Source of the DNA: a virus
IMG/VR virus record: IMGVR_UViG_3300042923_001459
Span: 32,001 to 96,000 of that record
Length of the DNA stretch: 64,000 bases
Direction: 5' to 3' (one strand)
The notes under the pieces are model-generated. The model was not told the origin of the DNA. It did not search any database and worked only from the letters and a program-made list of their open reading frames with translations. Shown in pieces: positions 5,979 through 43,631 of this stretch. Within the stretch, counting starts at the first letter, position 1. Each line of letters starts with the position of its first letter. Made by a program: the position numbers and the translations under genes.

Positions 5979-5990
5979 ACCTACATCTCC

Positions 5991-10339: not shown

Positions 10340-10352
10340 AATTTCATCACTC

Positions 10353-11865: not shown

Positions 11866-11959
11866 TATTTAATTTCCCTCCCAATTTTTAAAACAATAAA
11901 GGGCTGCAAGACAAAAATGAATGTCTCACAACCCATAAGGTGCTCTTTTAGGTTGTACA

Positions 11960-13180: not shown

Positions 13181-13193
13181 CGTCGTACCTCCT

Positions 13194-13751: not shown

Positions 13752-13763
13752 CTTGAAAACCCC

Positions 13764-14177: not shown

Positions 14178-14414
14178 TTCCAGCCCCCTCCTTTATAATA
14201 TGCATTTTTAATTTTTTTTTAAATACCTCACTAACAAAGTGGAATATTTGATCTTTGTTAACGTATTAGAATCTTCTTACTTGAATGATTATCAACGCAA
14301 CATTCTAAGAATAATCAACTGACTAAATATAATAACCAAAGTATGTATTTTTTTTAAATAATTTTTTTTCTAATAGCCAAGTCTGGGTTGCATTTTAGAG
14401 ACGCTAACAAAACA

Positions 14415-14441
14415 AAAAGGTGAGATAAATTCTCACCTTTC
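14415..14441 (-). terminator. intrinsic terminator after subtilisin gene
   Basis: AAAGGTGAGA-TAAAT-TCTCACCTTT stem with T-run on the minus strand. Confidence 0.7.
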
Positions 14442-14451
14442 ATTTTACAAA

Positions 14452-15378
14452 TTATTTTATGTTATTGAAAGAGAATAATCCATATCCAAATTCATTATCT
14501 CTACCACTTATTCCTTCATCTTTACTGTTAGCTGCAAGGAATGATAGAACATCATGCGGTTTCATCATTTTACCTGTTTTTTGTAGAGAATCAGCTTGAA
14601 TTAATGCAACAGCACCGGCAATATGAGGACAAGCCATAGAGGTTCCAGATAGACGAGCATATTTTCCATTAGGAAAAGTACTAACCACGTCAACCCCGGC
14701 AGCAGAAACGTCAACCTCTACACTAGTACTAGAAAAAGAACCCTTGTGTTCTATTGAGTCAACGGCTGCAACTGAAATAACTTCATCAAAACTTGCAGGA
14801 TAACCAACTGTATCTTGACCAGCACCTTCATTACCAGCAGCAGCTACCAATACAATTCCAGCATCATATGCTTTTTTAATTGCATTATACAATGACGGGA
14901 TAAAACCTGGAGCTCCGAGACTCATAGAGACAACATGAATTCCATTTTCAATACACCATTCAAGACCTTGAATAATCCATTCTAATGTACCTTGACCACT
15001 GTCACTAAGTACCTTTACAGCATATAACTCAACTTCAGGTGCAACTCCTACAATACCAAGATAGTTTATTGAAGCGCCAATTACTCCAGCACAGTGAGTA
15101 CCATGACCTTGACGATCCATGTAATCATTGATGTCTGAAGTGGTAAAATTAACTCCACCCTTGAATCTGTCTTTTAGATCTTGATGATTGTAATCAATGC
15201 CAGTATCAAGTACAGCAACTTTAATTCCAGCGCCCTTTGTTTTTTCCCATTCTTTTTGAGCGCCAATTAGACGTACACCATATTCAACATTATCAATTGC
15301 ATTAGTTGATGCAGTCTTTAAAAATCCTTCAGCTTCAATAATTTCTAAAACCTTAAAACCAGAAACTTTAAATTCCAT
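14452..15378 (-). CDS. subtilisin-like S8 serine protease, no signal peptide
   Basis: Triad VAVLDTG, GHGTHCAG, GTSMACPH; oxyanion AAAGN. Confidence 0.95.
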   Translation of the reverse strand: MEFKVSGFKVLEIIEAEGFLKTASTNAIDNVEYGVRLIGAQKEWEKTKGAGIKVAVLDTGIDYNHQDLKDRFKGGVNFTTSDINDYMDRQGHGTHCAGVIGASINYLGIVGVAPEVELYAVKVLSDSGQGTLEWIIQGLEWCIENGIHVVSMSLGAPGFIPSLYNAIKKAYDAGIVLVAAAGNEGAGQDTVGYPASFDEVISVAAVDSIEHKGSFSSTSVEVDVSAAGVDVVSTFPNGKYARLSGTSMACPHIAGAVALIQADSLQKTGKMMKPHDVLSFLAANSKDEGISGRDNEFGYGLFSFNNIK

Positions 15379-15464
15379 TTAAAGCACCTCCAGTGATTTA
15401 AAATACTTAATTCAATGATTAGAATTAAGTATAATAAATATATAAGATGATGTTTAAAAAATAA

Positions 15465-15500
15465 TAAAAGCTTACTCTATTTGAGAGAGTAAGCTTTTAT
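15465..15500 (-). terminator. terminator-like hairpin after terminase
   Basis: AAAAGCTTACTCT...AGAGTAAGCTTTT inverted repeat. Confidence 0.7.
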
Positions 15501-15511
15501 ACTTGAGGTTA

Positions 15512-17179
15512 TTAAACTCTATACATTCTTCCAGTTGTAGGTCTTGGCATTCTACTTTTTCCACCAAATTCAGCTGCAAAATTAGCTAACGCATCAGAAC
15601 AACAAGCATCATCATGTCCACCATTTGGAGCTTCAATTCTTTTATTAACTGTTTGACGAACTTCCATCTCTAAATCTTTCCATTCACCAATCATTTTATG
15701 ATAAAAACCACCTAAATCTCTATTGCCAGTTTTATTAATTACATCTTTAGAAGGATATTTGAACCTTCCAACTTCTATATCATGCTTTATTTTTGCGAAC
15801 ATAATATTTTTCATATTCATACCAGAACGAGTATAGGAATCAGAAGCATTAAATGTGATACCTTCTAATTGTCTTAACCCATCTTGATCTCTAAGAATAT
15901 CAACAATTGGTCTACCTACACCAGTAAAATCAGCAAAAATTGACTCTACTGGAAATTTAGGTCTTGGTCCGCCAAACAATTTTAAAATTTCTAATCTTTG
16001 AGTATTAAAGCTCTCACCATGCATCTCCATAGCAAATACCTTTTCTCTTAATCCATTTGGTTGAACTCTCAATACTGAAATATGAGTATAATCGGCACCT
16101 GATGCGGCAGAACCTGCAAAGTCAATACCTGCAACGTATTTTTCTCCATAGTTGCCACTTTCTTGCCATTCGTGTTCTCCAGAGATCAATGTATCCCATT
16201 CCGATGTACTTAGGAATTGGCCAGCTCCATCAACAAATTCAAGCATATATTGTGTCTTAAAATCCTCTACTGACATTTCTCCTTCAGTCCAAACTTCTGG
16301 ATTTTTAGGGAAATATTGTTGCTTTAAAGGCTTAGGCATCAAACGAAGAACGTAAGCAGAGTATGGTCTCATTTCTTCTGGATTTTTGTAATCTGGAAGA
16401 TAAGTAGCATCCAAAGCCCATAATTGAGGACACTCTGTCCAGTCTTTTCTGATTTGAACAAATCCTTTTGGATTTTTAATTGAATCATATGCAATACCAG
16501 GTTGAAATGATTCCCAGAAATGATTACGAAATTTAGGTGTACCAATTTTAATAATTTTAGCATTTGTTGCACCACCCATCGGAACAATACGCTCAGATAC
16601 GGTGTAATTGGAAATTTTTTGTGCTTCATCTAATACAATTATATCAAATGTCAAACCCTCAATATTTGATTGGTCGGAACCAGAAACTGCCATTACATAA
16701 GAGCCATTGCTAAGTTCAATTTTACCTTTTGTACATTTTACAAGTTTATTGTTGAGTTTTTCTTCATTCATTTGAAAGAAGATAGCTGTACGTCCAACAT
16801 TAAGTTCTGCTTGCTGAATACGAGGGGTAAAGATACCAATTCTCATGTTTGGATAATTATCTAATAGGTAACCGGTAAATGATGCAATTGATTCTGTTTT
16901 ACCAGCTTGTCGAGCCATGAGGGCTGCAACAGAACGAATTTTAGGATTACATACAGCTCTAATTAACTCTACTTGATTAGCATGTAATTTCTGTTTATTT
17001 GGTGGCAAATGAGCTCTAAGAACTCTATGACAATATTCAACTGGATCCATTTTTGTAAGCATTTTTTTAAATATATAGCCACCTAAATCTTCACCATGAA
17101 TTTTATTTTGTTTCATAGCATTAAGTTGACCTTGAATAGCATTTGTATCACTTTTAAGTTTCGATATGTCGAAGAACAA
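15512..17179 (-). CDS. terL: terminase large subunit
   Basis: Walker A ARQAGKTE, Walker B IIVLDEA, coupling motif GTP, nuclease GIDFA and HDDACCSDA. Confidence 0.9.
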   Translation of the reverse strand: MFFDISKLKSDTNAIQGQLNAMKQNKIHGEDLGGYIFKKMLTKMDPVEYCHRVLRAHLPPNKQKLHANQVELIRAVCNPKIRSVAALMARQAGKTESIASFTGYLLDNYPNMRIGIFTPRIQQAELNVGRTAIFFQMNEEKLNNKLVKCTKGKIELSNGSYVMAVSGSDQSNIEGLTFDIIVLDEAQKISNYTVSERIVPMGGATNAKIIKIGTPKFRNHFWESFQPGIAYDSIKNPKGFVQIRKDWTECPQLWALDATYLPDYKNPEEMRPYSAYVLRLMPKPLKQQYFPKNPEVWTEGEMSVEDFKTQYMLEFVDGAGQFLSTSEWDTLISGEHEWQESGNYGEKYVAGIDFAGSAASGADYTHISVLRVQPNGLREKVFAMEMHGESFNTQRLEILKLFGGPRPKFPVESIFADFTGVGRPIVDILRDQDGLRQLEGITFNASDSYTRSGMNMKNIMFAKIKHDIEVGRFKYPSKDVINKTGNRDLGGFYHKMIGEWKDLEMEVRQTVNKRIEAPNGGHDDACCSDALANFAAEFGGKSRMPRPTTGRMYRV

Positions 17180-17256
17180 AACAATACACTCCCTTGTGAA
17201 TATTTATTAATAAATATAAACACAAGGTACTTTATAATAACAAGAAAAAAGAGAAC

Positions 17257-18000
17257 TCAAACGAGTTCTCTTTCAGTAATTATTTTATCAATTTCTCTTT
17301 TAATCATAGCAAATACTTCGTCAACTGATTTTTGTTTGCCATTTTTCATTTGATCAATAACGATCCAGTTATCTCTAGTTTTTGCAAAGTCGAGATAAGT
17401 TTCTGATACATTAATTAGAAGTTGATTGTTATTTTCATGAATATCTTCTTTACCTTCTTGATACTCTCGTTTACCACGAGATTCAATTCGCTCGATAGAA
17501 ATTGAAGGGTCAACATAAAGATAAAAATTGTAATCAGGCTTCACAACTTTAAGTTCATTGAACTCCATGTCTTCAATCCATCCAATGAATTCTTGTCTCT
17601 CTTCTTTTGATATTTTTTTACCAGCTGTAAAAAGATTAGAGTAAGTATATCTATCAGCCAATACAATATGACCATTTTCAATACTATTTTTTATTTCATC
17701 TCTTAATCTTGCTCTATCTGCAGCATAAGCAATACATATGAGTTCATCAGGGACGCTGTCAATACCACCATATTCGCCCTTGAGGTATGATGCAATTACT
17801 TTTCCAATTGGACGTTCATATTCAGGAAAAGAAACAATGTGCACTGTATGACCAAGATTTTCAAGATACTTAGCTGTACTTTTAACATGTGTACCTTTAC
17901 CCGCTCCATCAATTCCCTCGAATGTAAGAAGTAAGCCTTGTTCTAGACGTTTTTTGTTTTTAAAGAGATTGTAAATTTGTAGCTTACTCATTGCTGCCAT
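17257..18000 (-). CDS. tmk: thymidylate kinase
   Basis: P-loop TFEGIDGAGKGT, YAADR, LADRY. Confidence 0.9.
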   Translation of the reverse strand: MAAMSKLQIYNLFKNKKRLEQGLLLTFEGIDGAGKGTHVKSTAKYLENLGHTVHIVSFPEYERPIGKVIASYLKGEYGGIDSVPDELICIAYAADRARLRDEIKNSIENGHIVLADRYTYSNLFTAGKKISKEERQEFIGWIEDMEFNELKVVKPDYNFYLYVDPSISIERIESRGKREYQEGKEDIHENNNQLLINVSETYLDFAKTRDNWIVIDQMKNGKQKSVDEVFAMIKREIDKIITERELV

Positions 18001-18004
18001 CCCT

Positions 18005-18304
18005 TCAAACGTTTAATTTTTGTTTGTATTTATTTTTAAGAACAGTATTAAGAGTATCGAAATAGAAACAAGGTTCACCTTTATCGTTTAAACCTCTACC
18101 CATATAGACAAATTCTTCAACAGTGTTATCTTCAAATTCAATTTTAAATCCTTCTTTGTATAAATAGTCTTCTAATTGATGGAAAACATAAGTATCTACC
18201 GTTTCTGTATCTACTAACACATCACCATTTGGCATAGTGATTTTAGCAATTGAACCAATGCTATCTTGTTCGTTAACAATGAATTCTAAGAACTCCATAA
18301 ACAT
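18005..18304 (-). CDS. hypothetical protein
   Basis: ORF in operon. Confidence 0.6.
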   Translation of the reverse strand: MFMEFLEFIVNEQDSIGSIAKITMPNGDVLVDTETVDTYVFHQLEDYLYKEGFKIEFEDNTVEEFVYMGRGLNDKGEPCFYFDTLNTVLKNKYKQKLNV

Positions 18305-18384
18305 TCCTCTTTTCTTATTCTTATTTAATTATTATATGAATTATGTATACTCATTTTAAAGGATAATTAAATAAAAAAGACACC

Positions 18385-19086
18385 TTATTCATCGGTGCCT
18401 TTCAATTTGTTTATTTTGTTAATAAAAGCATTGTTGAAACCAGTCACTTCACGTATCTTGGCTTTACTTAAATCTATTTCACCAATACAACTTTTTTGAG
18501 CACATTTAATTGTTCCCGTGAAATCCTTATTGATAAGTTCTTTTGTAGCTTTTCTACAGGTTGGGCATCTTACTGATATGAGTTTCACAATTGCGTTCCT
18601 AGAGAACTTGCCAGCAGTTTCATCTTTATTCTCTTTATTTTCTTCATGATAGAGAAAAGTATTAGTTAAAGACCTTGCTGTTCTCTTTAAAGTGGTATCA
18701 AACAAAGTTTTCAATCTACCTGTATTTTTTACTGGATTTTTTACAACCTCAACTTGATCGTGTTCGTCAACCCACAATAAACCATATCCTTGTGGTAGTT
18801 CTTCTGGTTGAATTAAGTTAGTTGGACACATGATGTATGCATAGTGAGCATGATGAAAATAGGATGTTTTATCTCCAAATAGTTTAGTGTCTCTCTTATA
18901 ATCACCTTTTGAAGCTTTTACCTCAATAACCCTAACTTCTCTTCTTTTCAGATTCAAACCAACTGCATCCGCTATACTCCAAGCGTTATTGAATTCGACC
19001 TCGTTAGCTACTAAATCAGTCACTTTACTTTTTAGCCAATGCAATGCTACATATTTAAGGTGCTTGTGTGTTTCTCCCTCAGCCAT
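18385..19086 (-). CDS. PD-(D/E)XK nuclease-fold protein (MmcB-like) with C-terminal zinc ribbon
   Basis: IADAVG...VIEVKASKGDYKRD; CPTC...CAQKSC. Confidence 0.65.
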   Translation of the reverse strand: MAEGETHKHLKYVALHWLKSKVTDLVANEVEFNNAWSIADAVGLNLKRREVRVIEVKASKGDYKRDTKLFGDKTSYFHHAHYAYIMCPTNLIQPEELPQGYGLLWVDEHDQVEVVKNPVKNTGRLKTLFDTTLKRTARSLTNTFLYHEENKENKDETAGKFSRNAIVKLISVRCPTCRKATKELINKDFTGTIKCAQKSCIGEIDLSKAKIREVTGFNNAFINKINKLKGTDE

Positions 19087-19163
19087 GAAATCGCCTCCTT
19101 ATATATTCTATTCAAAATTTGCAAACTTTATTACAAAATAAATAAAAAAGGAGCCGAAGCTCC

Positions 19164-19577
19164 TTATTCAAAACCATCTTTTAATTTAGCAATTCTTGCT
19201 ATTTCTACAAAAAGCTTTTTAAATTCATCAAAATCATAGAAAGTATATCTAGCACTGTGTGTTGAAGAATCATGATTGAAATGCGAAGTTTTAAAATTGG
19301 ATTTATCTAAATACGATATTAAAGTTCTGTGATCATGTGCATGTTTCATTAAGTAAATAGAAAAGACCAATTTATCTTCATAACAAAACAATTCAAACTC
19401 AAATATTTTATTTACATTAATTCGTAGATAGGTTAGTGTTTCATCACTGTGAAGTGTCTTCATCGTTACTGGAGCTCCACCAGTTAATTCTGCCATTACA
19501 AGAAATGCGCTTAGAAAATCCTCAAATTCATCCAACATTACAATACTACTCTTTATATGCACCAACGAGTTTTTCAA
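19164..19577 (-). CDS. hypothetical protein carrying the shared helix motif (FEDFLSAFLVMAELTG)
   Basis: ORF followed by terminator at 19145-19165; motif shared with the 35-41 kb family. Confidence 0.6.
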   Translation of the reverse strand: MKNSLVHIKSSIVMLDEFEDFLSAFLVMAELTGGAPVTMKTLHSDETLTYLRINVNKIFEFELFCYEDKLVFSIYLMKHAHDHRTLISYLDKSNFKTSHFNHDSSTHSARYTFYDFDEFKKLFVEIARIAKLKDGFE

Positions 19578-20280
19578 TTGCTTTTTTCCTCGCTTTCATA
19601 GATTCCAAATTATCTCTAAGCGTATCAAGCTTTCTTTGAGCCAAATTTACTTTATCTGGTTCAATTTCGTTATCAACGATAATTTTTTGAATTTCAATTT
19701 CAACTTCTAACTTTGGAATACTTTTGGTTACGTCTTCTAATAAACCTTTTAAAATATAAATCTTTAATTCGTCCATGTTACTCACTTTTTCTTCGCCACC
19801 TTTTGGTAAATTACTTATTCTTTCAATAGTGCTGTTTTCAGAGTTGCGTTGAAACACATAGTGAGGTATTTTTTTAGCCTCATCTTTTTTTGGTTCAACT
19901 TTTTTCTTTTTTAACTCTTTTACAGGAACAACAATATCTTTTGTTTCTTCTTCTAAATCTAATTTTAGATTTATTTTTTCAATATCTAGACTTTGTTCTT
20001 TAGCTATCACTCTTTCTAACCATTCATCATTGATTGGAGGAAGATCAAGCTCTGCAATAGGGGCATAAACTGTGTCTAGTGTTTTCAATTCTTCTTCGAC
20101 GTTAAGTTCAACTTCCTTTTCAACAAATACTTCATCAACTGCAGATTCTTTTTCTGGCTGACTTTCTTCAATCGGAGCTTGTTGTATTGGCTGTGAGTCA
20201 TTTATTAACTCAGATTCGCTCTGTTTCCTTGAAGAATTATTATTTAAACGTGGATTATAAGAATTTTTACCCTTGGCCAT
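19546..20280 (-). CDS. hypothetical acidic coiled-coil protein
   Basis: Overlaps neighbours in operon. Confidence 0.6.
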   Translation of the reverse strand: MAKGKNSYNPRLNNNSSRKQSESELINDSQPIQQAPIEESQPEKESAVDEVFVEKEVELNVEEELKTLDTVYAPIAELDLPPINDEWLERVIAKEQSLDIEKINLKLDLEEETKDIVVPVKELKKKKVEPKKDEAKKIPHYVFQRNSENSTIERISNLPKGGEEKVSNMDELKIYILKGLLEDVTKSIPKLEVEIEIQKIIVDNEIEPDKVNLAQRKLDTLRDNLESMKARKKAIEKLVGAYKE

Positions 20281-33264: not shown

Positions 33265-33630
33265 CTATTCTGATTTACTATCTAATAATTCCTTAAGTTG
33301 TGTAGGAAGTATCTTATGGCTCCATAGTTCTATAGCTCGTCTAACCGCCTTTGTCTTTAATTTATTCTCGGTTAAATGTATTTGTGTTTCCCATGAATTA
33401 CCTAACATTGCTATTACTACTGGTGGTTTCTTTACTACAGTGCTGTACGTATGGATTAGTTCTCTTGTTGCGGGGAGGGCTTCTTCTCCCCCGGCCATTG
33501 TCTCATAGAGTCTTACTTCTACCAGTGCTATCTTGCCAAAAATCCATTCTGGATCCTGCTCTATTCTAACATCCATTTCATATTCATAGAAATCGTTTAT
33601 CTTCTCTAAGATGTTCTTTACCATTTCCAC
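33265..33630 (-). CDS. hypothetical protein
   Basis: RBS-like AGGATGAG; ORF in orientation. Confidence 0.6.
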   Translation of the reverse strand: MEMVKNILEKINDFYEYEMDVRIEQDPEWIFGKIALVEVRLYETMAGGEEALPATRELIHTYSTVVKKPPVVIAMLGNSWETQIHLTENKLKTKAVRRAIELWSHKILPTQLKELLDSKSE

Positions 33631-33838: not shown

Positions 33839-34471
33839 TTATTGGATTACCCTGCGAGCGTTTACAAATTTATTTCTCCAGTACGAACCTGAAGCGAAAG
33901 TAATGTAATTGATTTTGGCTGTAGGATTATTTGTATGAAGCATTATATCCTTGTCAATATACATTCCTACGTGGTTGATTACTCCATCACCATTTGTGTC
34001 AAAAAATAGTAAATCTCCCGTACGTAATTCATCAAGCTCTACTACTTGACCATAAACTGCTTGACGACGACTATCCCATGGGAGTTGTATTCCGATAGCT
34101 TTATCAAAACACCATTGCATTAGATCAGAACAATCGAAATCATTGTCGTTTGTTCTGCTTGAGCCATAAACATAAGGAGTGTTGATAATATTTCCATCAG
34201 CATCTCTTCTATTCATGTAAAACTCAATTTTAGCTATTACTAATTTTGCTTTTTCTAACCATTCCGGAATAAATTCCTCCACGTATTGTGATAATGAAGT
34301 AATGTAACCAACCGTTCCGTCCATCAATTTAGCATAATAGAAAGTTTTTCCTTCTACGTTGCTTAAAACTTGTAATTCTGTGCCTGCAGGGAGTGTTTTA
34401 ATAACATTATTCGCAACTACTGGGTCTTTTCTAAAGTTGACTGAAGTTTTTGTGCGTATAAATTTTTCCAT
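33839..34471 (-). CDS. SH3b + NlpC/P60 peptidoglycan endopeptidase
   Basis: SVNFRKDP...GTVGYI (SH3b); FDCSDLM, GDLLFF, HVGMY (NlpC/P60). Confidence 0.9.
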   Translation of the reverse strand: MEKFIRTKTSVNFRKDPVVANNVIKTLPAGTELQVLSNVEGKTFYYAKLMDGTVGYITSLSQYVEEFIPEWLEKAKLVIAKIEFYMNRRDADGNIINTPYVYGSSRTNDNDFDCSDLMQWCFDKAIGIQLPWDSRRQAVYGQVVELDELRTGDLLFFDTNGDGVINHVGMYIDKDIMLHTNNPTAKINYITFASGSYWRNKFVNARRVIQ

Positions 34472-34571: not shown

Positions 34572-35054
34572 TTACCAATTTATTTTTTTTAATTGTTTAA
34601 GTTTATCAAAATGTTTTTCTATGTCTGAAAGTTTTACATCCTTCTTTACGATAATTCCATTTATCTTTAAAAAGGCTGTTCTTTCTCCATAGAGCGGAAA
34701 TTCTTCATAAGCTTCAAATTCTATAGCAAACGACTGATCAAATATTACAATTACTGTTTCGCGAAATTCACTTTCATTATTATTAAATAAAAATTCCACT
34801 AAACCGGGAACCATTTTATCCAACTCATCCTTAACGCTGTATTCACACCATGTTGTTTCATAAGCTAATTGAAAGTTCATTTTATTAAGAGCTATCAGTA
34901 TTTCTTTGATATTCTCTGGGTGCGGTTCTGATTTTGTTCTAAAGTACGAAACACGTCCATATAACGGGTAATATTTGAAATCATAGCTTTTTATGAATTC
35001 TTCTCCGCTAGTTCTTATTAACTTTAACATCTTTATCCTACCTTTCATGGTCAT
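34572..35054 (-). CDS. hypothetical protein (start possibly 35030)
   Basis: Operon member. Confidence 0.6.
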   Translation of the reverse strand: MTMKGRIKMLKLIRTSGEEFIKSYDFKYYPLYGRVSYFRTKSEPHPENIKEILIALNKMNFQLAYETTWCEYSVKDELDKMVPGLVEFLFNNNESEFRETVIVIFDQSFAIEFEAYEEFPLYGERTAFLKINGIIVKKDVKLSDIEKHFDKLKQLKKINW

Positions 35055-35481
35055 AGATAGCTGGTTGCATATCTATAAGGAATTGTTGTAGATGATCTGG
35101 ACTATCTATAGATACTTCTATAAATCTTTCTCCCTGCTTACCGTCAAATGTGACCTTTCTTTTGTAATTCTTTAGTGGCGCGTATCTACTTGTGTTTAAT
35201 TTAAAAGCTTTTTCATCTATTTCTGCAACTATTTCCTTTGTGAGCATATTATGTTTAAATCTGATGATTGTTTTCATTTGAAAACTAAATCGATTTTCCC
35301 TTATGTATTTTCTTATGCAGTATGTGTGCTTAAAGGAATTTACCGATGCTCTTTCAACTTTTGGTTTGTAATGGAATTTATCTGCCAGTCCTGCTAATTC
35401 ATTAAGTATGAAAAATGCATCTATGGTTTCTTCCACCATTGTTCTTTTGGGATGTGTTTCTGTTATCATTCCTTTAGCCAC
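35038..35481 (-). CDS. shared-helix family protein (VEETIDAFFILNELAG)
   Basis: N-terminal motif; overlapping operon. Confidence 0.65.
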   Translation of the reverse strand: MAKGMITETHPKRTMVEETIDAFFILNELAGLADKFHYKPKVERASVNSFKHTYCIRKYIRENRFSFQMKTIIRFKHNMLTKEIVAEIDEKAFKLNTSRYAPLKNYKRKVTFDGKQGERFIEVSIDSPDHLQQFLIDMQPAIYDHER

Positions 35482-35939
35482 CTACTTATAATTGGTAAAA
35501 TTTTCTGCAGATCTTCTATGCTTCTTAGTGTGCACACCATGATTCTTTTTCCCGGTTCCTTATTCTCATTATAAGATACGTCTGGCATAGTGAATCCAAA
35601 TTGGGCCAAATCTGGTTCATTTTCAACAACTATACCTAATGGTTCCTCATTTATTAAGCAATCTATCATTGTAATGTACTCTCTGACACTAAAACCAGCC
35701 TGTAGAAAATTACTAAATCCCTCTCCACGTCTGATGCACCAAGAATGAGTATTATCATGTATCAATTGCCCACCGGTAATTTTTATATCTCTTGTCATAA
35801 GTTCAAGTACTCTATATGATTCCATAGTTTCATTGAAGTCTTTAATTAATTTATGATAGCAATTTACGTGAAACTCCCATGCTTCTTTCGAGCTTATAAA
35901 GTCGTTCAATAATGGTTGATCTATATTGTTTTCCATCAT
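35466..35939 (-). CDS. shared-helix family protein (FNETMESYRVLELMT)
   Basis: RBS GAGGAGG; promoter upstream. Confidence 0.65.
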   Translation of the reverse strand: MMENNIDQPLLNDFISSKEAWEFHVNCYHKLIKDFNETMESYRVLELMTRDIKITGGQLIHDNTHSWCIRRGEGFSNFLQAGFSVREYITMIDCLINEEPLGIVVENEPDLAQFGFTMPDVSYNENKEPGKRIMVCTLRSIEDLQKILPIISRWLKE

Positions 35940-35957
35940 TTATCCTCCTCATTATAT

Positions 35958-36006
35958 CCTTATATATATATTATATCACATTCTTTTCATTTTGTAAACA
36001 AAAAAA
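35958..36006 (-). promoter_or_regulatory. sigmaA-type early promoter, same class as the 42-64 kb array
   Basis: Minus strand TTTACA-N17-TATAAT with TGTG extension. Confidence 0.75.
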
Positions 36007-36042
36007 GAAGGTTTACCCTTCTTTATCTAGGAATTGTTGATA

Positions 36043-36450
36043 TTAAATAATTTTGTCTATCACGCTTAAAAATATTTCAAATGATTTTGCATCATACAAC
36101 GTCCATATAACTGTGTTTCCAGCTACAGATATTTCGCTTTTACTATGTACATCGTAAATAGTTCGCGGAGTTATGTCATATTGTGTGTGCATTTTTAGAT
36201 CTTGATATTCTCTACTTGTCAGTAACTCATGCTCCATATAAATTCCATTTCTACTAACTACAATTTTTTGATCTTCCTCATATACAGAAATGTCGTAAAC
36301 TGTTCCACCTTTTTTTCTATGCAATGTGAATTTACCAATTTTTTTATCTGAAAGTACCTTTACCTCAACTGGGAATGGTTTGGTATCAGTAAGACATTTC
36401 ATCACTATATAATTATCAAGTATTTCGTTAATTTCTTCAATTAATGTCAT
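36043..36450 (-). CDS. shared-helix family protein (INEILDNYIVMKCLT)
   Basis: ATGA overlap; motif. Confidence 0.65.
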   Translation of the reverse strand: MTLIEEINEILDNYIVMKCLTDTKPFPVEVKVLSDKKIGKFTLHRKKGGTVYDISVYEEDQKIVVSRNGIYMEHELLTSREYQDLKMHTQYDITPRTIYDVHSKSEISVAGNTVIWTLYDAKSFEIFLSVIDKII

Positions 36451-36839
36451 CTAAAGACCACCCATTCCTTCATAATCTGATTTAAGAATATTGGAAGATG
36501 TTTTTCAGAAATATGAATTCTTATTGTCCTGCGTCCAACGCTGTAAGTATCATATTCCATTTTTCCAAAATGTTCATAATCACTTTCTATAATCATCCCA
36601 ACTTCGTTTTCATTAAATTGTGCGATATAACCCAACGTATCATATCTATAAAATACTCTTAAGGTGTATTCAAACGATTTTCTACCTTTTACATAATACG
36701 AAATCATGCAGCCTTGCGCATCACGCCACACATCTAATGCAAAAATACATCTACCTGTTAATTCCTTCATAACTATGAAACTTTCCATAGTATCGTGTAA
36801 TTCTTGCATTATTAGGTTATCATTTAACAATACACTCAT
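36447..36839 (-). CDS. shared-helix family protein (LHDTMESFIVMKELTG)
   Basis: ATGA overlap; motif. Confidence 0.65.
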   Translation of the reverse strand: MSVLLNDNLIMQELHDTMESFIVMKELTGRCIFALDVWRDAQGCMISYYVKGRKSFEYTLRVFYRYDTLGYIAQFNENEVGMIIESDYEHFGKMEYDTYSVGRRTIRIHISEKHLPIFLNQIMKEWVVFR

Positions 36840-37267
36840 GACATTTCCTCAATTGAAAAAGAATCAATTTTTGACAATACATCATGAAACATTTCAAACA
36901 TTCTATCTATATCTTTAGGTGTTACAGCTTCTTCGAACAGACCATACTTATCGCCTATATATTTTCTGAAATCTTGATTTTGACCGCAAGACCAAATCCT
37001 TGTAATTTTGTCAAATGACCAATCATCATTGTAAAGTACTAACATATTAATTTGTAAAAGATTTTCAAATTCTCTACAATAAAATGATATGCAATCCCTA
37101 AAAAAACTATCTGAATGAGAAACCGCTACTTCCCAATCTGCCATTTGTGCAGTAACCAACAAGATTTCCAACTTATCAACGAAATCATTAAGTGGTATTT
37201 TACTAGTGCTTAAATGATCATATTTTATAGGAGTCCATGTTCTATCAACTTCATATTCATAACTCAT
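36836..37267 (-). CDS. shared-helix family protein (FVDKLEILLVTAQMAD)
   Basis: Divergent motif; operon member. Confidence 0.6.
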   Translation of the reverse strand: MSYEYEVDRTWTPIKYDHLSTSKIPLNDFVDKLEILLVTAQMADWEVAVSHSDSFFRDCISFYCREFENLLQINMLVLYNDDWSFDKITRIWSCGQNQDFRKYIGDKYGLFEEAVTPKDIDRMFEMFHDVLSKIDSFSIEEMS

Positions 37268-37279
37268 AACTAAACCCCT

Positions 37280-37768
37280 TCACCGAATGTATTTCATGAT
37301 TTTTGAAATTAATTCCATTAGTTGATCAAAATTCTCAAAGCTTACCGATAATCTCTTTAGACCCTTAACATTAGTAAATGTATGATTTTCTCTAGTAATA
37401 TTTATCCAGTTGTATTCACTGAATTTATTTTCAATACTAACGCCAATTTTTCTTTCATCTATTGAAAAATTAAGAATCCCTGCATGTACCTCTATCATTA
37501 TAAAGTAAGAACTTAACATTGGTGTCATTGATCCATTATTATAAATCATCCATCTTTTCATCATTGCACTCTTATCCTTGCGTATATAAAGTAGCTTCTG
37601 AGTTGATAGCGCTCGGTTTACGTTGAGGGCATCCAAAAGTTCATCAATTTGTTCTTCCAATGTGACCCTCTCATTTCTGCTTATTTTTAATTTGAATGAA
37701 GGTACTTTGCCATTTTTCCATTGTCCCATTTTCCCCACTCTCCCAGCCGAAGGCTCGGGGCTCGGCAC
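37280..37768 (-). CDS. shared-helix family protein (IDELLDALNVNRALS)
   Basis: Motif; true start probably the internal MGQWK. Confidence 0.6.
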   Translation of the reverse strand: MPSPEPSAGRVGKMGQWKNGKVPSFKLKISRNERVTLEEQIDELLDALNVNRALSTQKLLYIRKDKSAMMKRWMIYNNGSMTPMLSSYFIMIEVHAGILNFSIDERKIGVSIENKFSEYNWINITRENHTFTNVKGLKRLSVSFENFDQLMELISKIMKYIR

Positions 37769-37849
37769 TCACGAATCTATCTTCAAGCTCTCTGTAGAAT
37801 TCCCTATAGTATTAAAACATTATGTTACATATTTATTATACTAAGTTTC

Positions 37850-38266
37850 TTACAACAAATAGAGAGGTTGAACTTTGACTAGAATGTCGTACACATCGCT
37901 AGGCTTATTTAGTTCGAAGAGGAATTCCCGTTCAAATCTCTCTAAAATCTCACCGATAGAACCAGCATAGTGAGCGTGCTTCCTCCCGCCTTCAACAAAT
38001 TTATATCTTTGCTTCAGCCATTCTATATTCTCTTCTCCAACGCTAAACTGGCTTACTTTCGTGTATATGCTACCATTAGGCCGTATGAAATCAAAAGACA
38101 ATGAGTCTCTTTGCCGTGATTTTGTCAATCTAATTGAAAAACTATATTTTGAGCTTTTTGGATCTGGGTACTCCGTAATTCTAACTGGTCTATTGTCAGT
38201 TAGGTTCCATCCTACAATGTAGGTTTCCATTTCCTCTCTAATTTGTGCAATCATGCTTTTAGCCAT
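37850..38266 (-). CDS. shared-helix family protein (IREEMETYIVGWNLTD)
   Basis: TAATG overlap; motif. Confidence 0.65.
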   Translation of the reverse strand: MAKSMIAQIREEMETYIVGWNLTDNRPVRITEYPDPKSSKYSFSIRLTKSRQRDSLSFDFIRPNGSIYTKVSQFSVGEENIEWLKQRYKFVEGGRKHAHYAGSIGEILERFEREFLFELNKPSDVYDILVKVQPLYLL

Positions 38267-38742
38267 TACAACTTCTCCACCCTTAGGAAAATTTTAAAGA
38301 ATTCTCTTATTTCATTAGGATCTTCAATCTTCATGAAGAAATCTCTATAGCCAGGTTTTTGTGATTGTCTATTGACTCTAAGATTAGCTTTATTCATGAT
38401 TGCTCTACATTTAGTTTTTAGGTTGATGCCAAAATGATCTTCTATTAGCCATAATTCTGATTCTACTCCATAGCGGTATCTATTCACCCTAATTTTCATG
38501 CAAGCTTGCCAATTTTGATAATATGATGGATGAGAACCTATGTAGTATGTTGAATCCTTCTGGTCTCCATGAATGTCACTTTTTGTCCAACAAACTTTCC
38601 CTTTCAAACCAGAAAGTTCTCTCAAAACATTTATTGAATCTACTTCTTCTTGTATGACTAATTCTAAGTTTGCACGCAATTCTCGTGTTTGTAGAATGTA
38701 CTTATCTAGCTCTTCTGGTGTCACCTTATTCACCTCATACAT
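38266..38742 (-). CDS. shared-helix family protein (IQEEVDSINVLRELSG)
   Basis: Motif. Confidence 0.65.
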   Translation of the reverse strand: MYEVNKVTPEELDKYILQTRELRANLELVIQEEVDSINVLRELSGLKGKVCWTKSDIHGDQKDSTYYIGSHPSYYQNWQACMKIRVNRYRYGVESELWLIEDHFGINLKTKCRAIMNKANLRVNRQSQKPGYRDFFMKIEDPNEIREFFKIFLRVEKL

Positions 38743-38811
38743 ATTTTATCCTTTTATCTATTTTATGCAATAAAAAAACCAGTTTTTACACTGGTTGATT
38801 AATATTTAACA

Positions 38812-39243
38812 TTACTTTCTCAACTTAGGTTCATCTCCAGCATCACAATATGTGCAATTGGATTTATCGCGGTCATATTTCAATGTATAACTTTCAGTTA
38901 TCCCGAAAGCAAGTGGTCCTTTATTTTTCTTTATTGTAAGATTAATTTTGTATCCCGGTAATTCGTTGTCTTCTGATAATTCCTTTGCTACAATCAATCC
39001 ATCAATGTAATCATCAATATGAATCCCTAAATCCATAGCTTCTCCTAAAGCCTTATCCCTACATTTCTCACAAGTTATACCATCATGCGACGTTTTATTA
39101 TGCCATTTACATAGCTTACACATATTAGCCTCATCCCATAGCTTTATATTTGTAAAATCTATTGGTTTTGAACCCAAAATACACCGTATATATTCCTCTT
39201 CCCTTGAAAAACTTTCACATGGGTCATTTAATTTCATTTGCAC
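38812..39243 (-). CDS. C4 zinc finger + shared helix (IDDYIDGLIVAKELSE)
   Basis: CKLC...CEKC. Confidence 0.65.
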   Translation of the reverse strand: MQMKLNDPCESFSREEEYIRCILGSKPIDFTNIKLWDEANMCKLCKWHNKTSHDGITCEKCRDKALGEAMDLGIHIDDYIDGLIVAKELSEDNELPGYKINLTIKKNKGPLAFGITESYTLKYDRDKSNCTYCDAGDEPKLRK

Positions 39244-39448
39244 TTTTCTTCAGCTCCTCAGCTACAACATATGCATCCGTAAAATCCTTCAGACTTATGT
39301 TTGTTACCTTTTCCCATTCCTTAAATATTTCCTCTAGACATTCAGAACATACTGTTGTCGTTGTGTGATCACCAGCCAAACTCGATATAAATGCTGTCGT
39401 GCAACATTGACAACTATACGCATACCATTTGCCATCGGATTCATTCAT
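39224..39448 (-). CDS. C4 zinc finger + shared helix (LKDFTDAYVVAEEL)
   Basis: CQCC...CSEC. Confidence 0.65.
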   Translation of the reverse strand: MNESDGKWYAYSCQCCTTAFISSLAGDHTTTTVCSECLEEIFKEWEKVTNISLKDFTDAYVVAEELKKSANEIK

Positions 39449-39641
39449 TTGAAATCTCCCTCATTACGATGTATGCATCTATAAATTCAAAAATGTTAGT
39501 CCTATCGTCAATATCATTTTTATACCATGCTGCTCTTATTTCTGCAAAACATGGCTCGCATAAACTCATTGCCAATTGGCTTTTACAACGCAATCCCCAT
39601 ACAAATCTTATATTGCAATTTCTACATGTACAAGCATACAT
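39441..39641 (-). CDS. C4 zinc finger + shared helix (IFEFIDAYIVMREIS)
   Basis: CRNC...CEPC. Confidence 0.65.
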   Translation of the reverse strand: MYACTCRNCNIRFVWGLRCKSQLAMSLCEPCFAEIRAAWYKNDIDDRTNIFEFIDAYIVMREISNE

Positions 39642-39883
39642 TATGATTCACCCAATTCCTCAGTTGCAATATAAGCATCCATGAATTCATCGTAATCCAA
39701 CAATTCTCTATTCTCTGCACATGCTTCATACCAAGCTGCTAAAGCATTTTCTTGACATGTTATGCAGATTTTCTTTTCTCGTATTCCCCAATCGTATTTT
39801 GAAAATTTTTTGCATATCTTACAATCAAACGCTTTTTCCATAATTTTATTTAATTCTTCTATATTTTTCTTTTTATCAATCAT
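39641..39883 (-). CDS. C4 zinc finger + shared helix (YDEFMDAYIATEELG)
   Basis: CKIC...CITC. Confidence 0.65.
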   Translation of the reverse strand: MIDKKKNIEELNKIMEKAFDCKICKKFSKYDWGIREKKICITCQENALAAWYEACAENRELLDYDEFMDAYIATEELGES

Positions 39884-40230
39884 TTTGCTTCTATCGACCT
39901 ACCTTCCGCACCAGACATTTCATTCATAACTTCAATGGCGTCCACCAAATCCTGTATCGTGCTATCACTATACCGCGGATTTGTCGCTATTACATTCTCC
40001 AGCTCTGCGTAGCAGTCGCGACAAATTTTATTGAGCTTATAGCTTTTCTTATCGCGGAATCCAACTAAGCACCTGCACGTTTTGCATTCTGGTGGAACTG
40101 CACTTTGCAGATGCTCTATCATTTTATCCGTTAAGATTCTTTCAATTTTCTTATGAACTTCCTTTTCGACTCGTCGTTTTTCCTTCCAATCCACTATCGC
40201 ATTTCTAATGCGTTTTAACATTTTCCTCAC
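39880..40230 (-). CDS. C4 zinc finger + shared helix (IQDLVDAIEVMNEMSG)
   Basis: CKTC...CRDC. Confidence 0.65.
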   Translation of the reverse strand: MRKMLKRIRNAIVDWKEKRRVEKEVHKKIERILTDKMIEHLQSAVPPECKTCRCLVGFRDKKSYKLNKICRDCYAELENVIATNPRYSDSTIQDLVDAIEVMNEMSGAEGRSIEAK

Positions 40231-40243
40231 CCGCCAATTGTAT

Positions 40244-40489
40244 TTATTCTGCTAATTCATTCATTGTATCTATTGCATCTACTACATCTAAAACCGTCAT
40301 ATCAACTTGTGCTTTTTCCAATTCAAATTTGATATTTTTATAACAACTCGTACATGTTTTACACTCCATGTACGCCTTTGCATTTGAATTTGCCAATCCA
40401 CCGCATGTCTTACAATTTCCAAGTAGTTGGCGTTTCTTATTTCTTATCTTTTTAGCCTTTAGTTTTTGAAAGAAATTGTCTAATTCCAT
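40244..40489 (-). CDS. C4 zinc finger + shared helix (VLDVVDAIDTMNELAE)
   Basis: CKTC...CTSC. Confidence 0.65.
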   Translation of the reverse strand: MELDNFFQKLKAKKIRNKKRQLLGNCKTCGGLANSNAKAYMECKTCTSCYKNIKFELEKAQVDMTVLDVVDAIDTMNELAE

Positions 40490-40490
40490 T

Positions 40491-40706
40491 TTACGACCTC
40501 GCCAATTGTCTTATTAGTTTTTTACCTTCAACATATTCTTCTAGACCATACCCATCGCCGGCGATCGAATTTCTAAATTCTTCTTCACACTTTTTCTTAC
40601 ATTTTTTGCATAACTCTAAATCTAAATCATCTACCAACATGTACCCACATAATTGACAACAACCGTCAATTGTTTTTATCGTATAGCCAGTCAGATCTAT
40701 TTTCAT
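40491..40706 (-). CDS. C4 zinc finger + shared helix (LEEYVEGKKLIRQLA)
   Basis: CQLC...CKKC. Confidence 0.65.
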   Translation of the reverse strand: MKIDLTGYTIKTIDGCCQLCGYMLVDDLDLELCKKCKKKCEEEFRNSIAGDGYGLEEYVEGKKLIRQLARS

Positions 40707-40707
40707 A

Positions 40708-40938
40708 CTAGCAACTCCCTAACATATTAGCTAATTTTTTATTTTCAATATATTCTTCAAAATCAACCTCCGCACCTTCAGCTCTTAAACTTTTACATTC
40801 TATTTGACATTTAGTTGTACAAACCAAACATAAATCAAGGTTTATTACCACAATTGCTCTTTTTTCGCAAAATACACACATATTATGAACCATTTCTACT
40901 TTTCCGCTAAATGTTATTTTCATACTAACAACTCCCAA
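40708..40938 (-). CDS. C4 zinc finger + shared helix (FEEYIENKKLANMLG)
   Basis: CVFC...CLVC. Confidence 0.65.
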   Translation of the reverse strand: MGVVSMKITFSGKVEMVHNMCVFCEKRAIVVINLDLCLVCTTKCQIECKSLRAEGAEVDFEEYIENKKLANMLGSC

Positions 40939-41173
40939 GTGCGTTTGCTAATTTTTTATATTCTATGTACTCCCTAATCCCCAGTGCTTCCCCTTGCCAC
41001 ACTAACTCCTCTATGTCGAATGTCGCTTTTATGTAACAGCTCGTACACAGTTTATGTCCATTTCTCTCATCATACTCCTTACTGCATAACTCACATCTTA
41101 TCTTATAATAATGTGCGTTCATTGCTACAAATTCCCACCACGTTTTATTCCCTAACCCTCCGCGAACTGTCAC
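40925..41173 (-). CDS. C4 zinc finger + shared helix (IREYIEYKKLANALG)
   Basis: CELC...CTSC; close paralog of the next gene. Confidence 0.65.
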   Translation of the reverse strand: MTVRGGLGNKTWWEFVAMNAHYYKIRCELCSKEYDERNGHKLCTSCYIKATFDIEELVWQGEALGIREYIEYKKLANALGSC

Positions 41174-41494
41174 CTACCATTCCCTCCCTAATTCGTTAGC
41201 TATTTTCTTATATTCGATATACTCGCTAATCTCCACAACCTCCCCTTGCCATATTAACTTCTCTATGTCGAATGTTGCTTTTATGTAACAATTTTCGCAT
41301 AGTTTGTATATGTTAGTTGGCATCAAATGCTTCTTTCCACATATTTCACACTTGTACTTTTTGTTCAAATAGTCTAATACTTCTTGTTGTAACTCCTGTA
41401 TTTCCTTCGTGGTTGCCATCTTATCCCCCCAAGTGTCAGCGTATTTTACTGTCAACTTTTTGCCTTCAATTTTTTTCCAGAAATTTTTTAACAA
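41174..41494 (-). CDS. C4 zinc finger + shared helix (ISEYIEYKKIANELG); start probably 41419 (MATTKE)
   Basis: CEIC...CENC; GGGGGG RBS before 41419. Confidence 0.65.
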   Translation of the reverse strand: MLKNFWKKIEGKKLTVKYADTWGDKMATTKEIQELQQEVLDYLNKKYKCEICGKKHLMPTNIYKLCENCYIKATFDIEKLIWQGEVVEISEYIEYKKIANELGREW

Positions 41495-41542: not shown

Positions 41543-41656
41543 TTACTGCCCTAATGCCTTACTCATAAACATTACAAATCCTACAAATATGCCCATTATG
41601 CCTGCCAACATTGCCAACCAAAACAGCCCAATAGCCCATAATCGCTTCATATCCAT
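41543..41656 (-). CDS. small membrane peptide, 37 aa (MDMKRLWAIGLFWLAMLAGIMGIFVGFVMFMSKALGQ)
   Basis: Hand translation; GAGGG RBS; below the track length cutoff. Confidence 0.5.
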   Translation of the reverse strand: MDMKRLWAIGLFWLAMLAGIMGIFVGFVMFMSKALGQ

Positions 41657-42012
41657 TGCCCTCACTGCCCTCTCCCGTTACTCTACTAATACTTTGTTTA
41701 GTACCAACAACTCCAGAAAAACACCTTAAATTTTACCCGTGATTTAGCGGGTATCTGCCCACCCTCTAGAGGCCCTCTGGGACCTTTCTAGGCACTTTTA
41801 CAGCTGATAGGTATACCGCTGCCGCCGTATTACCTTATATATATATTATATCACATTAACGTTCTTTTGTAAACGGTTTGTTTAAAATTTGTTTAGACTG
41901 CTAGACGGTTCAATCGGTTGTCAAGACTTCTGGTTCTGTCCTCAGGTTTTCTATCGCGAGGCCAAAGCTTTTGAGAAGTCTGGGGAAAACCCTAAGATTC
42001 TCCCCAATTCTC

Positions 42013-42228: not shown

Positions 42229-42316
42229 TTTGTTTCCTCCTTTGTACTACCTTATAGAATAATTATATCACAAAGGAGTTGAGTTGTAAACTGTTTTTAA
42301 ATAAAAAAGAGAGAGC

Positions 42317-42601
42317 CTATGCTCCCTCCTCCTTAAAGAGAAATTCAATGAATGGTTCTGCTTCATTTCCAATAGCATCTCGAAAGTAATCCTTTACATT
42401 TTCAACTTCATTCTTTAGCGTTTCAATTGGAAAGTTATTGATTACGTGTGATACATATTGCCAGCCTCTAGGATAGAGATTTTGTTCCGGGTCGAATAGT
42501 TTGTCCGGATTCTGTTGTATGTAGTTTACTACCTTTTGATTTACTGCGCCAGTCTTTCCATACTCTATCCAGTCCTTTACATCGACACTAAACATTGCCA
42601 T
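42317..42601 (-). CDS. small protein resembling an isolated MoxR/AAA+ lid domain
   Basis: DWIEY...YIQQNPDKLF...YPRGWQYVS. Confidence 0.55.
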   Translation of the reverse strand: MAMFSVDVKDWIEYGKTGAVNQKVVNYIQQNPDKLFDPEQNLYPRGWQYVSHVINNFPIETLKNEVENVKDYFRDAIGNEAEPFIEFLFKEEGA

Positions 42602-42705
42602 TTTGTTTCCCCCTTCATTATTACCTTATAGATTTATTATATCACAATTGTTTGCTTGTGTAAACTGTTTTTTAAATGAAGAAAGGAGAGCAATTAAGCT
42701 CTCCT

Positions 42706-43113
42706 CTAGAATTGGAAGCACCATGAACCACCACGAACGCCGAACACTAGGTCTTCGCTTTTACAAAGCTCATCGACTCTTTCAACTCTACTTTCAATTA
42801 AGTCGGAGTCTTTATCGTACCCAACATAGAACCGACACATTTCATGAAACTCTTCTTTATACTCGTATTGTGGAATGATTTCAAGGAACTCACCTGGAGC
42901 AAAGATAGTTTTGAACTTGTTCTCATCTCTTAAATCCAATGAGATAGTATCGAAGTCTCCGCCTTCTTGTCCGCTACGGAATTCAGTAATGTCGATGTTA
43001 CCAAACTTAGCTGGTTTGATTATCATTGAAGTGCCGTTAGCATTGTGTTTGATATAATCAATCTTGTTGCAGTCCTTCGTACGTTTGAAGTTAATCCCGT
43101 TACATGATTTCAT
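42706..43113 (-). CDS. hypothetical early protein
   Basis: Own promoter, RBS, terminator. Confidence 0.75.
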   Translation of the reverse strand: MKSCNGINFKRTKDCNKIDYIKHNANGTSMIIKPAKFGNIDITEFRSGQEGGDFDTISLDLRDENKFKTIFAPGEFLEIIPQYEYKEEFHEMCRFYVGYDKDSDLIESRVERVDELCKSEDLVFGVRGGSWCFQF

Positions 43114-43201
43114 TGTGTTGCCTCCTTTGATTACCTTATAGATTAATTATATCACAATTGTTAAGAGTTGTAAACTGTTTTTTAAAAGAAGAGAGGAGGG
43201 A

Positions 43202-43543
43202 TTACCCCCTCCATAATAATGCGTGGTATCTTTCCAAATCCAATAGCTTTGCCTTAGCATCATGAGGTTTTAGTTTCTCCTCTATGATTTCAGAGAAAAC
43301 TTCATTGGCATTTAATCCAATTGCATAAGGGATTCCCATTAGGCGATTGAAGTCTTCTCTGTTGTCAACAGATTTTGCCAATAGGTTTTCAATTTTCAAT
43401 TGTGTGTTGTAATCTTTTCTTTCTTCCTTGTTCATCTTTGGTAAGTCCGTATCTCTATCTGGGTTGATGATGATTTCTAATCCCGTTGAACCTACATGGA
43501 ATATTCTCCGTTTGCTTTTTAATTCCTTGAAATAGTTATTCAT
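43202..43543 (-). CDS. hypothetical early protein
   Basis: Own promoter, RBS, terminator. Confidence 0.75.
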   Translation of the reverse strand: MNNYFKELKSKRRIFHVGSTGLEIIINPDRDTDLPKMNKEERKDYNTQLKIENLLAKSVDNREDFNRLMGIPYAIGLNANEVFSEIIEEKLKPHDAKAKLLDLERYHALLWRG

Positions 43544-43631
43544 TTGATTCCCTCCTTTGATTACCTTATAGATTAATTATATCATAATTGTTTGATTGTG
43601 TAAACTGTTTTTTAAACAGCAAAAAAGAGAG

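Follow-up and report, generated by a model that had tools for sequence, protein, structure and literature searches.

Eighteen consecutive small genes of a phage G-like megaphage share an acidic helix that is probably the first helix of one diversified protein family

Why do eighteen consecutive small proteins of one virus carry the same helix of about sixteen residues, ahead of a domain in some and behind a zinc ribbon in others? The genes in question lie in a 64,000-nucleotide stretch of DNA (the window in what follows; bases 32001-96000 of the 108,591-base-pair (bp) viral record IMGVR_UViG_3300042923_001459 of IMG/VR), where they form an unbroken array of 18 open reading frames (ORFs) on the minus strand, running from 41494 down to 35038, with stop and start codons overlapping in many of them. 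The eight genes g01-g08 (group A) encode the motif helix followed by a domain, and the ten genes g09-g18 (group B) a zinc ribbon combined with the motif helix. A preliminary description of this DNA had taken the helix for a portable docking element, fused to unrelated domains after the fashion of F-box and SOCS-box proteins and linking them to one common hub. The reading that we favour, and hold to be probable with considerable room for doubt, is that the motif represents helix 1, conserved and shared by descent, of a single fast-diverging, phage-specific family, and that the 18 genes stem from tandem amplification in two of its branches.

CheckV puts the completeness of the record at 22%; guanine and cytosine (GC) make up about 34% of the bases, and the minus strand carries nearly all of the genes. 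Because its portal protein (616-2598) shares 80% identity with the portal of Bacillus phage G and is far from that of every other phage, the record is, judged by this sequence, a fragment of a phage G-like megaphage; the large terminase is found at 15512-17179. Proteins identical to the record's own also occur on a contig of 163,216 bp, so that a longer assembly of the same phage exists.

The motif and the fold to which it belongs

The motif, which in reduced form reads Φ-x-[DE]-x-Φ-[DE]-x3-Φ-x3-Φ (Φ, hydrophobic), is present in all 18 ORFs, as first described, and the eight peptides that had been given as examples are all found. A Gibbs sampler run without prior information (width 16, 18 sequences) places one site in each protein, the same as the one reported before, with a log-likelihood of 351-370 against 280 ± 5 for shuffled sequences (z ~14). 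For g01-g08 alone the value is 193.5 against 178.4 ± 3.7 in shuffles (z 4.0), and lies above those of six control sets of eight neighbouring ORFs (164-186). Columns 3 and 6 are D or E, and columns 1, 5, 10, and 14 hydrophobic, in 18/18. A minimal pattern, defined post hoc from the same data in which it was counted, occurs 18 times in the 2,065 residues of the family versus 5 times in the 32,919 residues of the other minus-strand ORFs, an enrichment of about 57-fold; in shuffles it is found in 0.24 members.

The motif is also what connects the two groups at the sequence level. A motif profile built from g01-g08 ranks g13 and g11 right behind its training set (E ~1e-3 among 557 ORFs). With a scoring matrix derived from group B only, the best position coincides with the motif site in 7 of the 8 group A members (g01, g06, and g08 scoring above all 151 background ORFs, g03 and g04 at ≤0.02), and a matrix derived from group A only finds the motif site in 9 of the 10 group B members. 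The 19 columns that align in a profile-profile comparison of A versus B are exactly those of the motif (E 1.9e-4), and the group A protein g08 matches the zinc-ribbon member g13 by BLASTP over 51 residues (E 0.001). By itself the motif signal is weak in g02, g05, g07, and g15-g18, the last four of which are tied in by whole-protein homology to the other zinc-ribbon genes. Its placement agrees with the preliminary description: in group A it lies near the N-terminus ahead of the domain, starting at residues 7-41, and in group B it follows the zinc finger and is usually C-terminal, ending 0-9 residues from the end of the protein in 9/10, g09 excepted.

The motif helix is the best conserved part of these proteins. 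Its 16 positions include 7 hydrophobic ones, spread over two faces, and its helical hydrophobic moment is a low 0.66; the acidic pair sits on a stripe opposite the N-terminal hydrophobic positions and is probably solvent-facing. A membrane-targeting amphipathic helix was dropped as a reading in view of the acidic character of the motif and its low hydrophobic moment. Conservation at the level of the DNA, as a recombination linker, was considered and dropped, since the identity of only 67-76% over ~33 nucleotides is what protein conservation in an AT-rich genome is expected to yield.

AlphaFold models were made for two proteins, g01 and g04, both of group A. The g04 model, built on a 14-sequence alignment (predicted local distance difference test score (pLDDT) 78.3, predicted template modelling score (pTM) 0.70), begins with a helix (residues 2-26), continues with four strands (32-40, 43-51, 56-65, 70-76), a short helix and two further strands (94-96, 105-110), and closes with a second long helix (112-128). 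The model of g01, which was obtained independently and is of low confidence (pLDDT 57), has its elements in the same order. When the g04 model is compared with 48,161 solved chains, the highest structural Z-score is to Med17C (9.6), followed by the C-terminal domain of T4 MotA (MotA-CTD; 5jlt_A) with a Z of 8.7 (root-mean-square deviation 3.1 Å, 104/114 residues, identity 7%), 1yb3 with 8.3, frataxin/CyaY with 7-8, and, at Z ~6, type III chaperones, AcrIIA11, PsiB, and YjbR; for g01, MotA-CTD ranks first with a Z of 4.7. The nearest entries to the ESM Atlas model of g04 are YbjN-like clusters, and a Foldseek search against the PDB returned no match at E ≤ 0.001. The matches to solved structures are borderline for homology, yet on these models they would define the fold class, in which both terminal helices lie on one face of an antiparallel sheet.

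The domains that follow the motif thus do not look unrelated, as had been supposed: g01 and g04, at 16% identity, are modelled with the same helix/sheet/helix topology, MotA-CTD is among the top two solved matches for both, and the same predicted fold recurs in more than 25 phage G paralogs. All eight group A domains appear, on this modelling, to have one fold. Nor does the motif behave in the models as a free docking helix, forming instead part of helix 1 of the domain, where it superposes on the N-terminal helix of the MotA-CTD and frataxin folds. Because it is hydrophobic on two faces and superposes on a core helix of the matched folds, it is most likely partly buried; burial within the fold is what the preliminary description itself had named as speaking against a docking element. 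By sequence, only the motif, the G-x-R strand, and the C-terminal helix of group A can be aligned.

Relatives in phage G and readings of the shared helix

Among predicted viral structures, the top matches to the g04 model are almost all phage G proteins of ~110-180 residues, most of them of 130-150. More than 25 phage G proteins match, many with a probability of 0.95-1.0 and most with a template modelling score of 0.45-0.7; they include Gp674, 76, 322, 488, 485, 497, 643, 520, and 671. The motif helix recurs at their N-termini as [DE]-x-x-[DE]-x-aromatic-x-hydrophobic...L-[ST]-[GD], and several of them show weak full-length matches to the family profile. Copies of the family form a 12-gene tandem cluster in phage G (gp485-497) and are further found among the nucleotide-metabolism genes gp302-322. 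The single copies and the tandem cluster sit at 220-236 kb and 376-382 kb of the phage G genome (NC_023719.1), the single copies following glucosyltransferases, thymidylate kinase and synthase, and dCMP deaminase, that is, genes of nucleotide metabolism and DNA modification. In the present record a ninth group A member (19164..19577), dispersed from the array and outside the training set, matches the family profile with an E of 1.2e-5 over profile positions 11-135.

Beyond these, an exhaustive HMMER profile search of 1.84 billion protein representatives found only six further relatives, all of the helix-and-domain form, one of which (P0015) is on a compost-metagenome contig of 475,962 bp that is probably a near-complete phage G-like genome. 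None of the 18 genes had a match above threshold in Pfam or PHROGs, and three extra candidates had none in Pfam; no phage record matched the array by megablast, g18 and g04 found just noise among phages by tblastn, and a word-indexed protein search brought back little besides proteins of this very record. Searches for related loci with the flanking NlpC/P60 gene, with P0014 (IMG/VR), and with P0017 (JGI metagenomes) found no relatives. Phage G is the only cultivated megaphage, and 66% of its ORFs are still hypothetical, according to the main text of a 2025 re-annotation (PMC12484599), which names none of gp670, gp671, gp674, gp307, gp485, and gp488. No description of the superfamily was found in the literature, a search that took in the main text of that re-annotation.

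The members of group B are plain paralogs of one another (BLASTP E down to 5e-25). Each of the ten has four invariant cysteines in two CxxC knuckles, spaced 10-21 residues apart, and they are by this pattern C4 zinc ribbons and predicted zinc binders; the ribbon is followed by a short helix, a loop, and then the motif helix at the C-terminus. Comparison with named zinc-ribbon families gave only sub-threshold Pfam matches (DZR_2, DUF4428, CpXC), and matches to generic ribosomal zinc ribbons were at E 0.004 and weaker. A DksA/TraR-like factor acting through the secondary channel was considered and rejected: there is no Pfam match to zf-dskA_traR, and the helices after the ribbon, at only ~35 residues in total, are too short. 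The hybrid g09 has eight cysteines, of which C9 and C21, together with the C-terminal CxxC (C129/C132), could make a second metal site joining both ends of the protein.

Two proteins bridge the groups. One is g09; the other is gp307 of phage G (168 residues), in which a CxxC..CxxC ribbon precedes the motif (E 8e-6 with the motif profile), and four strands and a C-terminal helix come after it. There is thus a graded series of domain alone, zinc ribbon with domain, zinc ribbon with helix and strands, and zinc ribbon with helix. At the syntenic site of phage G the order of the genes is preserved, with the B-like gp670, the A-like gp671 and gp674, and gp677, which resembles the ORF at 33265-33630 of the window. 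Since phage G has just one B and two A genes at this site, the array of ten and eight is a lineage-specific expansion. Outside the window, at 103836-104270 of the record (minus strand), P0022, a protein of 144 residues, ends in 16 motif-like residues after a different N-terminal region, and may represent a third architecture; the match is weak (E 0.005-0.03 among genome ORFs, 0.12 by profile comparison).

On the favoured reading, both branches would belong to a single superfamily that is confined to phage G-like megaphages. Group A, with the dispersed ninth member, would consist of two-layer α/β domains of ~120 residues, built of helix 1, six antiparallel strands, and helix 2. The motif would make up the C-terminal half of helix 1, which is conserved; apart from it, just helix 2 and the G-x-R strand would be recognisable, the sheet having diverged too far to be recognised by sequence. 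Group B, with its C4 ribbon and short helix ahead of the same helix 1, would most likely stem from fusions of a zinc ribbon to the domain, as exemplified by gp307 and with g09 as an intermediate, through loss of the sheet; the helix would then be common by descent and not plugged onto unrelated domains. The array would be a local expansion, probably transcribed early by the host RNA polymerase from a consensus promoter, and its proteins may be small binders, diversified for host takeover or counter-defence, in which the two helices would serve as scaffold and the hypervariable sheet would provide specificity, with a different target for each paralog. This functional guess is based on the class of fold, on which parts are conserved, and on the genomic setting.

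Several observations weigh against this account. Two of the eight group A members are modelled, one of them poorly, and a Z of 8-9 to solved structures falls within the range of common arrangements. Leave-one-out profiles of the part of group A that follows the motif are not significant, a profile of the same region finds almost nothing, and pairwise profile comparisons within group A, mostly collinear among the best pairs, reach only P 0.0015-0.1. The structural models cover group A, so that the packing of the group B helix falls outside them, and early expression is read from the promoter consensus only. The direction of evolution may have been either fusion followed by loss, or accretion of the zinc ribbon. 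Finally, the ten B paralogs retain the helix though the sheet would be lost, which fits docking as well as descent and indicates that the helix has a role of its own.

The models leave an outside chance that the proteins are transcription factors, with group A as double-wing DNA binders resembling MotA-CTD and group B as zinc-ribbon DNA binders, which would steer the host's RNA polymerase towards groups of phage promoters; the lineage is reported to have neither a polymerase nor sigma factors of its own. In both independent models the best or next-best solved match is MotA-CTD, MotA is an early protein of its phage and binds DNA with the sheet of its C-terminal domain (PMC2988021), and Iyer et al. 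proposed such a role for another zinc-ribbon expansion of phage G (PMC7824862). Four group A members (g01, g06, g07, g08) are basic outside the motif, with a net charge of +5 to +10; the other four, however, are acidic (isoelectric point (pI) 4.5-5.8, with all eight spanning 4.5-9.7). The 7% identity to MotA is accompanied by no match to the MotA families of Pfam at E ≤ 1 (nine proteins scanned, g01-g09), and the N-terminal activation domain of MotA, which binds sigma region 4, is absent from the group A proteins, which have 130-162 residues with 6-40 of them ahead of the motif. The Z of 8.7 is borderline, and unrelated protein-binding folds (Med17C, frataxin, type III chaperones, AcrIIA11, PsiB) score similarly. 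Sequence-specific factors would also be unusually numerous at dozens of paralogs per genome.

We give a small chance to an adaptor system. All members would dock by the conserved acidic face of helix 1 to one hub, for example the host's RNA polymerase, a protease, or a phage assembly, a second specificity would come from the variable sheet or from the zinc ribbon, and the proteins of ribbon and helix would be minimal adaptors or competitive decoys. This is a weakened form of the idea of the preliminary description, from which one part stands, namely that a single motif occurs across the architectures of helix with domain, ribbon with helix, and ribbon with helix and strands; the unrelated domains and the free docking helix are not supported. 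The two invariant acidic positions of the motif, which are also common in the phage G paralogs, are consistent with docking, as are the persistence of the helix without a sheet in the ten B genes and in gp670, the free divergence of everything around this most conserved element, and, weakly, the possible third architecture of P0022, with its C-terminal motif after another domain. However, in the group A model the motif sits where the MotA-CTD and frataxin folds have their core N-terminal helix, its hydrophobicity on two faces and its moment are typical of a core helix and not of a surface tag, and conserved core helices with a variable sheet are also expected from plain divergence.

It is very unlikely that the shared helix brings A and B proteins together, or makes them self-associate, to give mixed oligomers. 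The groups adjoin here, as do gp670 and gp671 in phage G, and the helix is rich in hydrophobic residues; yet the copy numbers are unequal (10 versus 8 here, 1 versus 2 at the phage G site), and a terminator separates the two groups. A complex prediction of g04 with g11 scored 0.00, which amounts to no verdict and carries no weight either way. A chance or compositional effect of the AT-rich genome, for which it could be said that the pattern is of low information and was defined after seeing the data, is effectively refuted by the separation from shuffles for the full set and for group A alone, the lower values of the control ORF sets, the detection across groups by held-out profiles, and the recurrence of the motif in independent relatives and phage G paralogs.

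With descent from one family as the preferred reading, at least 19 genes of the record are assigned to a superfamily that has no Pfam or PHROG model; predicted structure and the N-terminal motif bring in over 25 more genes, scattered in phage G. Its signature is the acidic helix 1, the G-x-R strand, and helix 2, its fold class would be defined, and the apparent plug-in motif is given a simple evolutionary reading. The natural truncation and fusion variants (zinc ribbon with helix, gp307, g09) are ready constructs for probing the role of the helix. If the proteins are indeed diversified binders or MotA-like factors, they would partly explain how megaphages without their own polymerase take over the host. 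If, on the other hand, the adaptor reading were true, the dozens of superfamily copies in each megaphage genome would make up a modular system of adaptors whose targets are chosen by the hypervariable sheet, and the ten-fold amplified ribbon-and-helix proteins would be minimal adaptors or decoys tuning it.

Gene layout and expression signals

The coordinates of the array and of the signals associated with it are collected in Table 1.

Table 1. Genes of the array, the dispersed group A member, and nearby expression signals (window positions; motif positions in residues).
Feature	Position	Strand	Description
g01	35038..35481	-	Group A, 147 residues, motif 16-31; AlphaFold model of the same topology at low confidence; relatives P0013, P0014, P0020
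g02	35466..35939	-	Group A, 157 residues, motif 35-50; cross-family score weak
g03	36043..36450	-	Group A, 135 residues, motif 7-22
g04	36447..36839	-	Group A, 130 residues, motif 14-29 in helix 1 (model residues 2-26)
g05	36836..37267	-	Group A, 143 residues, motif 29-44, the weakest; full-length match to the family profile, of which it is a training sequence
g06	37280..37768	-	Group A, 162 residues, motif 41-56; relative P0018 with the same N-terminus
g07	37850..38266	-	Group A, 138 residues, motif 9-24; BLASTP match to g03, E 0.002
g08	38266..38742	-	Group A, 158 residues, motif 30-45; relative P0017
g09	38812..39243	-	Group B hybrid, 143 residues: zinc ribbon, motif 76-91, and 52-residue strand-like extension with terminal CxxC
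g10	39224..39448	-	Group B, 74 residues, zinc ribbon and motif 53-68
g11	39441..39641	-	Group B, 66 residues, minimal form, motif 50-65
g12	39641..39883	-	Group B, 80 residues, motif 64-79
g13	39880..40230	-	Group B, 116 residues, motif 92-107; best cross-family score
g14	40244..40489	-	Group B, 81 residues, motif 66-81 (C-terminal end)
g15	40491..40706	-	Group B, 71 residues, variant motif 55-70
g16	40708..40938	-	Group B, 76 residues, variant motif 60-75
g17	40925..41173	-	Group B, 82 residues, variant motif 66-81; 62% identical to g18
g18	41174..41494	-	Group B, 106 residues, variant motif 89-104
Dispersed ninth group A member	19164..19577	-	137 residues, motif 18-33, among head and packaging genes; motif-profile match
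Consensus promoter upstream of g18	41845..41873	-	One of six copies
Second promoter copy, upstream of g02	35970..35998	-	
Terminator-like hairpin with T-run between g09 and g08, at the A/B group boundary	38777..38796	-	
Terminator-like hairpin after g03	36004..36024	-	

Six near-identical promoters of the sigma-A consensus type with an extended -10 element (TTTACA, 17 nucleotides, TG-n-TATAAT) are found on the minus strand between 35.9 and 43.7 kb. With the terminator-like hairpins they suggest operons that would be transcribed early, driven by the host polymerase. Upstream of the array, at 42262-43604 (minus strand), the promoter elements lie within a repeat of ~50 nucleotides, most of them paired with hairpin terminators, forming single-gene cassettes. 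The leader of ~350 nucleotides between the promoter and g18 (with features at 41543-41665 and 41700-41845, both on the minus strand) holds an unusually GC-rich stretch and an ORF of 40 codons for a strongly hydrophobic, membrane-like peptide; its predicted RNA folding is no better than that of shuffles (z -0.8), and Rfam gave no match over 34.5-42.4 kb.

Just downstream of the array, at 33839-34471 (minus strand), lies a gene for a protein of 210 residues with a C-terminal tail-lysin domain of the NlpC/P60 type (PHROG tail-protein matches, E 1e-22). It is adjoined by the gp677 homolog mentioned above, likewise on the minus strand, which anchors the synteny with phage G.

Comparison with known systems

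Small binders that act in conflicts or as chaperones, namely the type III secretion chaperone Spa15, AcrIIA11, PsiB, and the TriTu immunity protein, show a helix/sheet/helix sandwich similar to that of group A (Z 6.0-6.4); they have no sequence relation to it, and the scores may reflect a common arrangement. Frataxin/CyaY scores higher, with helix 1, a sheet of five to seven strands, and helix 2, the helices lying on one face of the sheet (Z 7.2-8.0 to several chains), and group A is like frataxin also in the conserved acidic residues on helix 1. In frataxin an acidic ridge extends over helix 1 and strand 1. These proteins show no sequence similarity to frataxin and no Pfam match to it, comparison of the family profile with the sequences of solved frataxins gave none, and nothing ties the array to the assembly of iron-sulfur clusters. 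The 2025 re-annotation of phage G names one small protein 'CyaY chaperone-like' (PMC12484599).

T4 MotA (PDB 5jlt, 6k4y) shares with the group A models, in its C-terminal domain, the N-terminal helix, the antiparallel sheet, and the C-terminal helix; it is likewise a small protein of a large virulent phage, and the genes of the array also look early. The MotA-CTD fold is saddle-shaped, with helices interspersed with six strands, and other folds score within one Z unit of its 8.7 to g04. MotA differs in being encoded by one gene, whereas there are dozens of paralogs here, with net charges that range from strongly acidic to basic.

For the zinc ribbons, the nearest precedent is the lineage-specific expansion of ~35 copies that Iyer et al. 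described in phage G in 2021 (for example YP_009015343.1; PMC7824862). A family of 19 paralogs with a CPxC...CxNxCY core and a YWKENDRYL-type tail, which lies upstream of the window (3372-19654 of the record, minus strand), is probably this expansion. Both this family and group B are large sets of small C4 zinc-ribbon proteins, and both belong to this phage lineage; the acidic helix is missing from the former, however, and the core and tail from the latter. A comparison of the two by hhalign gives a probability of 8%, with only the first knuckle aligned, and by these sequence features group B is distinct from the family of Iyer et al.

The F-box and SOCS-box proteins, finally, resemble the array in having a short conserved helical element and a variable remainder. 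Their box is found on unrelated domains, whereas here the remainder of group A appears to be one fold that includes the helix, and group B consists of plain paralogs.

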